Below are positions 33,310 through 34,869 of a stretch of 64,000 nucleotides of DNA, piece by piece. The number at the start of each line of letters is the position of its first letter. Positions within the stretch are counted from its first letter, which is position 1. The stretch is taken from the IMG/VR virus record IMGVR_UViG_3300040758_000113; one strand, 5' to 3'. Made by a program: the position numbers and the translations under genes. The notes beneath the pieces are model-generated. The model saw nothing but the letters and a program-made list of their open reading frames with translations. It ran no database searches and had not been told where the DNA came from. The DNA comes from a virus.

Positions 33310-33395
33310 TGGCGGAGGAAGGAGGAATCGAACCCCCAGGGTTTGCCCTGCCCCGGTTTTCGAGACCGGTTACGGACCATTCCGTGGCATCCTCC
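33310..33395 (-). tRNA. tRNA-Ser(CGA)
   Basis: loop CUCGAAA; long variable arm; encoded CCA. Confidence 0.8.
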
Positions 33396-33401
33396 GGGAC
33401 T

Positions 33402-33490
33402 TGGCGGTGAGAGGGAGACTCGAACTCCCATGGGTATTACCCCAAGCCCCGCTTCCAACGGGGGGCGATGCCAATTCCGCTCATCTCACC
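33402..33490 (-). tRNA. tRNA-Ser(GGA)
   Basis: loop UUGGAAG; perfect acceptor GGTGAGA/TCTCACC; long variable arm. Confidence 0.8.
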
Positions 33491-33497
33491 GTAAAAA

Positions 33498-33585
33498 TGG
33501 AGGAAAGCTGGGGAATCGAACCCCCGTGGTTTTATCCACGCCCCGGTATTCAAAGCCGGTTACAGACCATTCCGCAGCGCCTTCC
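33498..33585 (-). tRNA. tRNA-Ser(UGA)
   Basis: loop UUUGAAU; variable-arm hairpin GTGG-TTTTAT-CCAC. Confidence 0.75.
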
Positions 33586-33590
33586 GAAAA

Positions 33591-33682
33591 TGGCGGAGAG
33601 GACTGGATTTGAACCAGCGGACCCCCTTACGGGGGTCGGCAGTTTAGCAAACTGCTGGGTTAAGCCACTCCCCCACCTCTCC
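33591..33682 (-). tRNA. tRNA-Ser(GCU)
   Basis: anticodon arm GCAGT-TTGCTAA-ACTGC; perfect acceptor GGAGAGG. Confidence 0.8.
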
Positions 33683-33800
33683 AAAAACTATGGGCGCTTG
33701 GACAGGACGCTTCCTGTACCCCGATGCCAGATACATCCCTCGTCAGGGCATGGCCTGCTTGCACATCGAGGTCGTGGCTTATTCAGCCAGCAACCCAATC

Positions 33801-33893
33801 TGGTGCCAGAGGGGGGGCCTCGAACCCCCATGTCCGTTTAATGGGACGCCAGTTTTTGAGACTGGTGCGTATACCTACTTCCACCACTCTGGC
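33801..33893 (-). tRNA. tRNA-Leu(CAA)
   Basis: loop CUCAAAA; perfect acceptor GCCAGAG/CTCTGGC; long variable arm. Confidence 0.75.
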
Positions 33894-33898
33894 AAATC

Positions 33899-33985
33899 TG
33901 GTGCGAGAGGAGGGAGTCAAACCCTCACTCGGTTTCCCGAACCAGCTTCTAGGGCTGGCGTGTCTATCAGTTCCACCACTCTCGC
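33899..33985 (-). tRNA. tRNA-Leu(UAG)
   Basis: loop CCUAGAA; perfect acceptor GCGAGAG. Confidence 0.8.
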
Positions 33986-34543
33986 AAAATTGGTGGCCGA
34001 GGTGGGAGTCGAACCCACAAAATCTCTTCCTTCTGAGGGAAGCGCCTTTGCCAATTTGACCACTCGGCCAATGTTTTTACTTCTGAAATTCTCTGTCTGA
34101 GAGTGGCAATTAGGACAGATGAATTGAACATTATTCTTTTGGTTGTCCCTGTTATCCCCATTTTTGTGGTTAATTTCTAAAACAAGCAATCGACCACGCC
34201 ACTCTGGAGAACAACCACATTCATCACATACGTAAGGAATCCCAGACTCAATCATCGCTCGTCGTAACCTGTTGGTTGTCTCTTTTCTTCCATTACGACG
34301 ATTAAAAATTAGAACTTCAGTCCAATGGAGTTTTCTTGAACCACCCGTATGCTCAAGCCCACTGTTCCGTCGTGTACCGAGAAAGTGAAGAGTACTAAGT
34401 TCATAATCTTTGATTCTCTCAATTAAAAGCCTTTGAGTTCCTCCTCCTTGCTTTATCCCCAATCTTCGGATAATCTCAGCATAGCTTTTGCTATCGGCTA
34501 CGATAGGAGCAAGCAACTCCTTTGTATACTTGATATGTTTCAT
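33917..34543 (-). CDS. HNH endonuclease whose last ~50 codons read through two same-strand tRNA genes
   Basis: YVCDECGCSPEWRG...INHKNGDNRDNQKNNVQFICPNCH; C-terminus is out-of-frame translation of tRNA sequence. Confidence 0.6.
   Translation of the reverse strand: MKHIKYTKELLAPIVADSKSYAEIIRRLGIKQGGGTQRLLIERIKDYELSTLHFLGTRRNSGLEHTGGSRKLHWTEVLIFNRRNGRKETTNRLRRAMIESGIPYVCDECGCSPEWRGRLLVLEINHKNGDNRDNQKNNVQFICPNCHSQTENFRSKNIGRVVKLAKALPSEGRDFVGSTPTSATNFARVVELIDTPALEAGSGNRVRV
33990..34069 (-). tRNA. tRNA with CAG anticodon (Leu-like D-loop, only 7-nt variable region by my fold)
   Basis: anticodon arm CTTCC-CTCAGAA-GGAAG; perfect acceptor GGCCGAG. Confidence 0.55.
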
Positions 34544-34593
34544 ATGGCAGACGCTCCTTACATATGTACTGCGTAGCTACCATATTTGATTTT

Positions 34594-34677
34594 GGTGCGG
34601 TCGGGGGGACTTGAACCCCCACCCCTTTCGGGACCAGACTCTCAATCTGGCGAGTCTACCAATTCCACCACGACCGC
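34594..34677 (-). tRNA. tRNA-Leu(GAG)
   Basis: loop UUGAGAG; perfect acceptor GCGGTCG; long variable arm. Confidence 0.75.
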
Positions 34678-34780
34678 ATAAACTATTAGCAGCGTCAAGG
34701 GACCGGTGACACCGCTGTGGTTGCCCTCACGGTATGTTCTCGTGTCCTACCGCATTCTTCCACGGAACGCTGCCAAAACT

Positions 34781-34869
34781 TGGTGCCGGGAGCAGGATTT
34801 GAACCTGCGTAGCCCACAGGGGGCGTCTGTTTTACAGACAGATGGTTTTAGCCTCTCACCCATCCCGAC
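34781..34869 (-). tRNA. tRNA-Tyr(GUA)
   Basis: loop CUGUAAA; long variable arm; encoded CCA. Confidence 0.8.

Follow-up and report, generated by a model that had tools for sequence, protein, structure and literature searches.

The IMG/VR virus record IMGVR_UViG_3300040758_000113, a stretch of 64,000 nucleotides (64 kilobases, kb) that we analysed as a whole and refer to as the window, contains nine transfer RNA (tRNA) genes at positions 33310-34869. This is quite probably a phage tRNA cluster in which the leucine gene with anticodon CAG (Leu-CAG) encodes a working tRNALeu without a variable-arm stem, a tRNA that would be charged by the host leucyl-tRNA synthetase (LeuRS), would read CUG and would represent a widespread lineage. 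We re-examined a reader's earlier note on positions 33310-34869 with ARAGORN and with Infernal and the Rfam models.

Across the window, ARAGORN at default settings called 27 tRNA genes. All lie on the minus strand, and they form two groups, one of 19 genes (8555-14976) and one of eight (33310-34869). A ninth gene in the second group, Ser-UGA, was called at a relaxed threshold, so the cluster of nine that the earlier note had described is borne out in both coordinates and anticodons. The nine genes occupy 1.56 kb, all nine encode CCA, and they follow one another in transcription order as Tyr-GUA, Leu-GAG, Leu-CAG, Leu-UAG, Leu-CAA, Ser-GCU, Ser-UGA, Ser-GGA and Ser-CGA, with spacers of 2–8 nucleotides (nt) inside the Ser and Leu blocks. 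Several same-strand genes with short spacers in a phage genome make this a phage tRNA array. Six of the nine reached the Rfam gathering score (E-values 1e-7 to 7e-10); Ser-CGA did so solely on tRNA-Sec, a related model, and the other five on the tRNA model itself. Leu-CAA, Ser-GGA and Ser-UGA fell below threshold and are ARAGORN calls only. The note had counted four Ser, four or five Leu and one Tyr gene. Four Ser, four Leu and the Tyr gene stand; no Leu-UAA or other fifth Leu gene was found in the window even with ARAGORN at -ps85, which added only obvious coding-region false positives. A JGI metagenome contig of 5893 base pairs (bp), L048, is 99.93% identical to window positions 31721-37613, and since this contig is independent, the array is no assembly artefact.

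Leu-CAG (33991..34069, minus strand) is 79 nt long including CCA. ARAGORN called it, and on the Rfam tRNA model (RF00005) Infernal gave it 57.8 bits, the top score of the array against a threshold of 29, with a 4-nt insertion confined to the variable region. It forms a four-armed cloverleaf, as members of this family do. Its variable region consists of seven unpaired nucleotides, AGAUUUU, and it is therefore not a class II tRNA, in which the variable region exceeds 10 nt and folds into a stem-loop; the eight other genes of the cluster all have such an arm, of about 12–19 nt. ARAGORN and Infernal agree on the 7-nt variable region and the Leu-type D loop, both of which had been noticed in the sequence, and neither program folds a long arm or changes an anticodon. 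The D arm comprises a 3-bp stem (G10-C25, U11.G24, C12-G23) followed by A13.A22, with the loop A14 A15 U16 U17 G18 G19 C20 A20a A21; it is of tRNALeu type, equal in length and register to the D arms of the three neighbouring long-armed Leu genes. The discriminator is A73, position 37 is A, and U48 is the final variable nucleotide, so that the loop resembles that of natural type I tRNALeu (at least 5 nt including nucleotide 48). The gene thus has the Leu identity set defined in E. coli, namely A73, A14 with U8, the A15-U48 Levitt pair, G18G19 and A20a, along with the T-loop partners U54, U55, C56 and A58 and an anticodon of the Leu type (NAG or YAA). The acceptor stem, GGCCGAG, has no G3.U70 and is unlike the stems of the cluster's three other Leu genes, all of which start with GC. 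Leu-CAG is the sole CAG decoder called in the window by ARAGORN, lax threshold included, and the identical gene is present in L048.

A scan of IMG/VR with a 19-nt D-arm signature from Leu-CAG returned 10 contigs of 24–368 kb, and a scan of JGI metagenomes with this signature, 17 free positions and AGAT returned 44. The free positions span the anticodon stem and loop, leaving the anticodon unconstrained in the metagenome scan. In the collected phage and metagenome contigs, ARAGORN identified 38 distinct short-arm sequences, which carried CAG (26), CAA (seven) or UAG (five) and no other anticodon. One tRNA body therefore reads CUG, UUG or CUA in different phages, and leucine is its sole consistent identity. 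When 30 distinct 79-mers are aligned, standard pairing is seen in 99% of stem cells, and compensatory double changes occur in 16 of the 20 stem pairs, across three stems. The covariation score was 0.641, compared with 0.176 in shuffles (0 of 500 reached 0.641) and at most 0.141 in slid controls; RNAalifold independently recovered the acceptor, anticodon and T stems. Outside the search pattern, four features do not vary across the 30 aligned relatives: A73, U48, the T-loop bases and CCA. Judged by these comparisons, Leu-CAG does not appear to be a defect: it looks functional, and seems to belong to a widespread phage tRNALeu lineage that has attracted little comment so far.

The only close match to Leu-CAG in an isolated phage (87.7% identity) is in Tunturi_5, a 309-kb jumbo phage of Tunturiibacter (Acidobacteriota). 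The syntenic locus there reads Leu-CAA, Cys, Leu-GAG, short Leu-CAG (79 nt), Tyr, short Leu-UAA (78 nt), Ser-GCU, Ser-GGA and Ser-CGA, with a tRNA nucleotidyltransferase gene nearby; the tRNAs of this array are unannotated in the record. No isolated-phage relative of the whole 2.1-kb region was found, only matches to single tRNAs. Among 185,579 species genomes the D-arm 19-mer had 30 matches, just two of which fall in a tRNA (contigs L034 and L035); the other 28 are chance matches without a tRNA, mostly in coding-like DNA, and a cellular origin of the short-arm family was rejected. L035 is a 69-kb contig of an Acidobacteriota metagenome-assembled genome (MAG) with 35 tRNA genes in 8 kb, an RtcB gene and an HNH gene inside the array, and short arms on every Leu gene. 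L034, an 884-kb Myxococcales MAG contig, has a nine-tRNA cluster that includes short Leu-UAG and Leu-GAG and adjoins genes for a Ro60/TROVE-vWA protein and fructose-1,6-bisphosphatase; this cluster is apparently chromosomal.

We parsed variable-region lengths for 580 tRNA calls in the collected loci, counting each distinct sequence once. Short regions (3–8 nt) were found in 100 of 141 distinct Leu genes, the other 41 having 10–20 nt, whereas 55 of 56 Ser genes and 26 of 27 Tyr genes were long, with one short gene in each family. The class-I families (about 235 distinct sequences) were short in all but 11 cases. Every Leu isoacceptor is short in L004, L008, L035, L042, L060, L061 and L070, among others, and the adjoining Ser and Tyr genes of these arrays keep their arms, with total lengths of 84–96 nt. 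At least three short-arm sub-families can be distinguished by their D arms. Long and short Leu copies of one anticodon coexist in L045, L054, L058 and L075-L077.

The long arm is the main determinant for seryl-tRNA synthetase (SerRS), and bacterial tyrosyl-tRNA synthetase (TyrRS) binds it, as seen in the T. thermophilus complex. Leu identity in E. coli resides in A73, A15-U48, G18G19 and A20a and does not require the arm (PMC9976931). As bacterial LeuRS needs no arm while SerRS and TyrRS use it, arm loss confined to Leu fits the rules of these synthetases; phage tRNALeu would have shed the arm, and tRNASer and tRNATyr almost never, because only in Leu is it dispensable for charging. The anticodon is not read by LeuRS, and in bacteria neither is the long arm, so leucylation of Leu-CAG by the host is the most likely outcome. 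The charging enzyme would be the host's, given that the window's five open reading frames (ORFs) of at least 700 amino acids (aa) contain no synthetase domain, LeuRS included, and that the Tunturi paper does not report a LeuRS for Tunturi_5. The nine genes would be transcribed together and excised by host RNase P and 3' processing enzymes, and they would decode Tyr, all six Ser codons and five of the six Leu codons, UUA having no dedicated UAA tRNA in the window. A homing-endonuclease gene would have been inserted between two of the tRNA genes. Leu-CAG would have lost the stem of its variable arm, with seven nucleotides left and every element used by bacterial LeuRS retained, and once leucylated would read CUG. 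ORFs in the window use all six Leu codons, with CTG making up 18% and TTA 9% of them.

Several observations weigh against this interpretation. The minimum free energy fold of the single Leu-CAG sequence is a rod, at -33.2 kcal/mol compared with -26.7 for the cloverleaf. A rod favoured over a cloverleaf is common for tRNAs, and Leu-GAG likewise prefers a non-cloverleaf fold, so we gave this result little weight and relied on covariation. The D stem was fixed by the search pattern and therefore could show no covariation. The loci were chosen by a pattern from Leu-CAG, which biases the frequency of short-armed Leu genes upward; when the 38 selected sequences are left out, about 62 of 103 Leu genes are short. 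According to Fan et al. (PMC6614811), neither the E. coli enzyme nor one of the Streptomyces LeuRS enzymes charges type I tRNALeu(CAA) from Streptomyces coelicolor, and leucylation by the host of the present phage is therefore not guaranteed. At the upstream edge of the cluster, the T run of a terminator-like hairpin (34870..34899, minus strand, terminator scan) touches the 5' end of tRNA-Tyr, and no sigma-70-like promoter was found in 33000-35700.

A deletion might instead have disabled Leu-CAG, which would then be a decaying tRNALeu pseudogene, out of use. Defects in its array neighbours (mismatches in Ser-UGA, an extra T-arm nucleotide in Leu-CAA, U7.U66 in Ser-CGA) would suit such decay, as would the HNH ORF that runs through the gene. 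However, it is Leu-CAG that has the best covariance score of the array, it is the window's only CAG decoder, and its 38 distinct relatives, with compensatory changes in three stems and an invariant A73, U48, T loop and CCA, make decay very unlikely. We see hardly any prospect of CUG being recoded by a Leu-CAG that accepts a non-leucine amino acid, as the gene's class-I shape and divergent acceptor stem might suggest. The same body occurs in different phages with CAG, CAA or UAG, anticodons whose codons have only leucine in common, the Leu determinants are invariant, and G3.U70 is absent. In alignments, moreover, CTG codons fall opposite aliphatic residues about as often as other Leu codons: in the window's ClpC-like ORF, the six that align stand opposite V, L, M, K, I and T of S. 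aureus ClpC, a small sample that gives no hint of recoding.

The loss of the arm may have been neutral or may have been selected. Selection, which we regard as improbable, would have favoured escape from a defence or toxin that cleaves tRNAs of class-II shape, or a mark that sets phage tRNAs apart from those of the host; it would add a reason to the proposal of an armless, host-charged tRNALeu and would not replace it. Recurrence in the several D-arm sub-families, in phages of several host phyla, and the coexistence of long and short copies of one anticodon in some arrays could be read in this way, as could the tRNA-repair genes nearby (RtcB in the L035 array, a CCA-adding enzyme and a tRNA ligase in Tunturi_5). 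Phage tRNAs have been proposed to evolve resistance to host tRNA nucleases (PMC10264068), and eukaryotic Schlafen nucleases are reported to be selective for type II tRNAs in their cleavage. However, no bacterial nuclease specific for the class-II tRNA shape was identified in this analysis, the Ser and Tyr tRNAs of the same arrays keep their arms and would stay exposed, and relaxed constraint with deletion bias explains the Leu-only pattern equally well. A wider version of the idea, in our judgement also improbable, is that variable-arm remodelling is a deliberate feature of large-phage tRNAs, lost in Leu and gained in some class-I tRNAs (Arg-CCU and Trp-CCA in the window; Pro, Ile-UAU, Gln, Met and Cys in related contigs), which evades host nucleases or marks phage tRNAs while host synthetases still charge them. 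Were it true, LeuRS from many bacterial phyla would accept type I tRNALeu, contradicting the picture of type I tRNALeu as a rare Streptomyces speciality with long arms everywhere else outside animal mitochondria; the S. coelicolor exception was described as a rare recognition mode.

As the window and its relatives show, genes for short-armed tRNALeu are routine in phages that infect several phyla, in arrays whose tRNASer and tRNATyr keep the arm. If these are working, host-charged tRNAs, Leu-only loss amounts to a natural experiment confirming which synthetases need the arm. The culturable pair Tunturi_5 and Tunturiibacter makes it possible to test both the charging of type I tRNALeu by a bacterial LeuRS and any advantage of arm loss to the phage. 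Annotation pipelines and isotype models may score or label short-armed tRNALeu inconsistently: the Tunturi paper lists 43 tRNAs with four Leu and three 'unknown', and ARAGORN calls five Leu genes in one Tunturi_5 cluster alone.

The other genes of the cluster, all on the minus strand, vary in how closely they match the tRNA models. The tRNA-Tyr(GUA) gene (34781..34869; 89 nt including CCA; ARAGORN; Rfam tRNA 56.1 bits) has a long variable arm of bacterial type, G1-C72 and A73. tRNA-Leu(GAG) (34593..34677; 85 nt; ARAGORN; Rfam tRNA 51.8 bits) has a long variable region of about 12–13 nt, A73 and A37. tRNA-Leu(UAG) (33899..33985; 87 nt; ARAGORN; Rfam tRNA 50.0 bits) also has a long variable arm; with G18 A19 in its D loop and U54 U55 U56 in its T loop, it has apparently swapped the universal G19-C56 elbow pair for A19-U56, a compensatory change in a tertiary pair. 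tRNA-Leu(CAA) (33801..33893; 93 nt, long variable arm; ARAGORN) reaches only a sub-threshold 43.4 bits, on the tRNA-Sec model alone, and its T arm has one extra nucleotide, which either makes the T loop 8 nt long or forms a bulge. In cellular tRNALeu(NAG), TrmD methylates G37 to m1G37. All the CUN-reading Leu tRNAs of the window (Leu-CAG, Leu-GAG and Leu-UAG) have A37 instead, as do long-armed Leu-CAG genes in L067, L076 and L077, a difference that could influence how the reading frame is maintained or abolish a site recognised by a nuclease.

Among the Ser genes, tRNA-Ser(GCU) (33591..33682; 92 nt; ARAGORN; Rfam tRNA 53.0 bits) has a 7-bp variable stem and G73. tRNA-Ser(UGA) (33498..33585; 88 nt) fills a 100-nt gap in the default ARAGORN calls, appears only at -ps90 and scores 34.5 bits on the Rfam tRNA-Sec model. 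Its T stem has 4 bp, its anticodon stem contains the mismatch C31.A39 and its discriminator is U73; the call is marginal. U73 is also present in Ser genes of related arrays and therefore is, by itself, no sign of decay. Ser-UGA and Ser-CGA are clear paralogues. tRNA-Ser(GGA) (33402..33490; 89 nt, long variable arm; ARAGORN; sub-threshold 29.5 bits on the Rfam tRNA-Sec model) has G73 and three nucleotides between its acceptor and D stems, and tRNA-Ser(CGA) (33310..33395; 86 nt, long variable arm; ARAGORN; Rfam tRNA-Sec model 47.1 bits) has G73, a U7.U66 mismatch and a compact D arm. We rejected a tRNA-Sec identity for Ser-CGA, which scores 47.1 bits against a threshold of 47 and has the anticodon CGA, not UCA, and for Leu-CAA, Ser-UGA and Ser-GGA, which also lack a UCA anticodon; all four are class-II cross-matches. 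The 118-nt spacer at 33683-33800 and the 103-nt spacer at 34678-34780 have no T-loop motif and no convincing Rfam match. Their folding is only moderately above shuffles (z about -2.5), and they were rejected as decayed tRNAs.

A 523-nt gap between Leu-GAG and Leu-CAG contains an ORF of 208 codons (33917..34543, minus strand) that matches phrog_10822, 'HNH endonuclease' (E = 5.9e-46). Its translation contains CDECGC...INHKNGDNRDN...CPNCH, that is, Cys pairs and a His-Asn-His motif, which place it among HNH proteins. Only residues 2-164 (nt 34540-34052) match the family, at profile positions 4-161 of 245; the remainder is read-through across the whole Leu-CAG gene to a stop codon inside Leu-UAG. 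Homing-endonuclease insertions are usual in phage tRNA regions, and this one looks like a copy that is truncated at its 3' end or decaying. A 69%-identical copy occupies a different slot in the related array L076.

Downstream of the cluster, a G/C-rich hairpin with T runs on both strands (33261..33291, found by reading the sequence; -24.3 kcal/mol, z = -2.8) is a probable bidirectional terminator, closing both the tRNA cluster and the convergent ORF at 30809-33241. The 121 nt upstream of tRNA-Tyr (34870-34990) fold at -55 kcal/mol (z = -5.5). In Tunturi_5 and in most related contigs, too, the Leu, Ser and Tyr genes cluster together, often joined by Cys, and the Leu/Ser/Tyr block persists even as the tail of a larger mixed array (L035, L050, L070). 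We infer that it may be an old inherited block built by tandem duplication.

The first array (8555-14976) has no Ser, Leu or Tyr gene. The earlier note had described the class-II set as segregated from a class-I array, which holds by amino-acid family and not by structure: two genes of the first array are long-armed, and Leu-CAG is a short-armed member of the second. The two arrays are thus split by amino-acid family, not strictly by structure. One of the two long-armed genes has the Arg anticodon CCU (8637-8726, minus strand; 90 nt; Rfam tRNA 47 bits) and a variable arm of class-II style, with a 5-bp stem and a GAAA loop (CUAUGCCGAAAGGCAUC). Its acceptor stem, GCCCCCG/CGGGGGU (G1.U72) with A73, is that of tRNA-Leu(CAG) in Mycobacterium phage Myrna and in contig L002, its variable and T arms are 86% like those of a Xanthomonas phage tRNA-Leu, and it has the arginyl-tRNA synthetase (ArgRS) determinants A20, C35 and U36. 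It could accept Arg, or possibly Leu or Ser. A long arm on a class-I anticodon recalls the nematode nev-tRNAs. The other gene has the Trp anticodon CCA (11163-11252, minus strand; 90 nt), a Trp-like acceptor (A1-U72, G73) and A8 in place of U8. A UUCG-capped stem forms in its variable region of 16 nt, and from anticodon to T arm the gene is 85% like tRNA-Tyr of mycobacteriophage Wildcat. The exact D-arm patterns of these two genes had no match in IMG/VR, and BLAST gave only partial similarity to phage tRNA-Leu and tRNA-Tyr genes.

Arm gain as well as arm loss recurs in these phages. Long variable regions (13–25 nt) are found in the related contigs on the class-I isotypes Ile-UAU (93–94 nt; L003, L035), Pro (81–92 nt; L006, L010, L011, L077), Gln-CUG (92 nt; L055), and Met and Cys (87 nt each; L009). 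We also observed a short-armed Tyr-GUA of 70 nt (L002, 3763-3832, plus strand), a short Ser-GCU of 76 nt (L056) and amber-suppressor-type tRNAs with anticodon CUA, 75 nt long (L057, L064).

The window is DNA of a large, uncultivated phage from soil or peat: it has a gene for a collagen-like tail fibre, many homing endonucleases, relatives in IMG/VR contigs and Tunturi_5, and no near match in cellular genomes. ORFs that resemble homing endonucleases (HNH, GIY-YIG with NUMOD3, EndoVII-like) number at least eight in the 64 kb, an unusually dense set (128-880, 8737-9534, 22971-23891, 24675-25523, 33917-34543, 35006-35209, 61214-61921 and 62675-63463). One of them directly adjoins tRNA(CCU) in the first array, and the one at 35006-35209 is a fragment of HNH type, with its first pair of Cys residues encoded ahead of any start codon. 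The convergent ORF next to the tRNA cluster (30809-33241, plus strand; 810 aa) resembles major vault protein (MVP shoulder, E = 8e-22; Vault_3); within the phage collection it matches only LR756500, LR756501 and LR756503 (462-kb and 735-kb huge phages), at about 41% identity over the full length. The ClpB/ClpC-like AAA+ ATPase gene (44159-46645, plus strand) is interrupted around residues 200–565 by an intein that bears a LAGLIDADG endonuclease domain. On the minus strand, a giant ORF of 1345 aa (51067-55104) has a polyvalent-protein ADP-ribosyltransferase domain and a weak match to the RNA 2'-phosphotransferase Tpt1/KptA, a second giant ORF of 1561 aa (55079-59764) has a nucleotidyltransferase domain, and a third ORF (16426-17448) encodes an RlaP-type 'RNA repair pathway' nucleotidyltransferase. 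Together these ORFs may reflect an RNA-repair or modification theme near the tRNA arrays.

A short arm had been thought atypical for tRNA-Leu, and for cellular tRNAs this is so; in phage tRNAs it is common, and a bacterial precedent has been characterised. Fan et al. (2019, NAR) described a natural type I tRNALeu(CAA) in S. coelicolor, whose LeuRS charges it; removing all five base pairs of a long arm, with 7 nt left, keeps acceptor activity, and the variable loop must have at least 5 nt including nucleotide 48 (PMC6614811). Like Leu-CAG, the S. coelicolor gene has a short variable loop and coexists with long-armed isoacceptors, and it is leucylated by a normal LeuRS. The two differ, as far as a comparison by description allows, in that the S. 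coelicolor tRNA is chromosomal, has the 5-nt loop ACAGC and takes its identity from C74 rather than A73, whereas Leu-CAG is phage-borne, with the 7-nt AGAUUUU, a D arm of class-II type and an invariant A73.

Closer parallels came from BLAST of the 79-nt Leu-CAG against isolated phages. Short tRNA-Leu genes annotated in GenBank include Mycobacterium phage Myrna genes 81 (CAG, 76 nt) and 82 (GAG, 74 nt), those of Mycobacterium phage Fezzik (CAA and UAG, 75 nt each) and Gordonia phage GodonK (UAG, 76 nt; CAA, 75 nt), and single UAG genes in Aeromonas phage 4_4572 (77 nt) and Acinetobacter phage UOL-KIMZ-24 (80 nt). The D arm of Myrna gene 81, GUGGGCAAAUUGGCAAAGUCG, is nearly that of Leu-CAG, and its variable region has 6 nt (AGUUUU). 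These genes and those of Tunturi_5 are, like Leu-CAG, phage-encoded and 74–80 nt long, with Leu anticodons and A73, and in Myrna and Tunturi_5 they also adjoin Ser tRNA genes; they are just 73–88% identical to Leu-CAG, and GenBank labels them plain tRNA-Leu. No paper on the missing arm in phage tRNALeu was found in the open-access PMC and bioRxiv literature. Given these short genes in isolated phages and the Streptomyces biochemistry, Leu-CAG is not new in kind.

A recent review describes tRNALeu as long-armed everywhere but in animal mitochondria, where tRNALeu has no long arm and is recognised mainly via A73 and A14 (PMC9976931). The mitochondrial tRNAs are naturally armless, as Leu-CAG is, but they serve an organelle with a dedicated LeuRS and have degenerate D and T arms, whereas Leu-CAG keeps the canonical elbow. 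Engineered armless E. coli tRNALeu (Larkin et al. 2002; Asahara et al.) is leucylated if A73 and the D/T-loop contacts are kept, according to the account in PMC9976931; those tRNAs are laboratory constructs, while the phage genes are natural and evolutionarily maintained. Dense same-strand tRNA genes with homing endonucleases, as seen here, are also found in the large-phage arrays of Tunturi_5 (43 tRNAs) and the huge phages of Al-Shayeb et al. (2020), and mycobacterial tRNA array units (PMC12803027) are of the same kind, with tRNA-repair or maturation genes nearby. The present array differs in being limited to the Ser, Leu and Tyr families, an arrangement that it has in common with Tunturi_5 and many related contigs. 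It is thus an ordinary phage tRNA array, and its short-armed Leu-CAG is not unique in kind.

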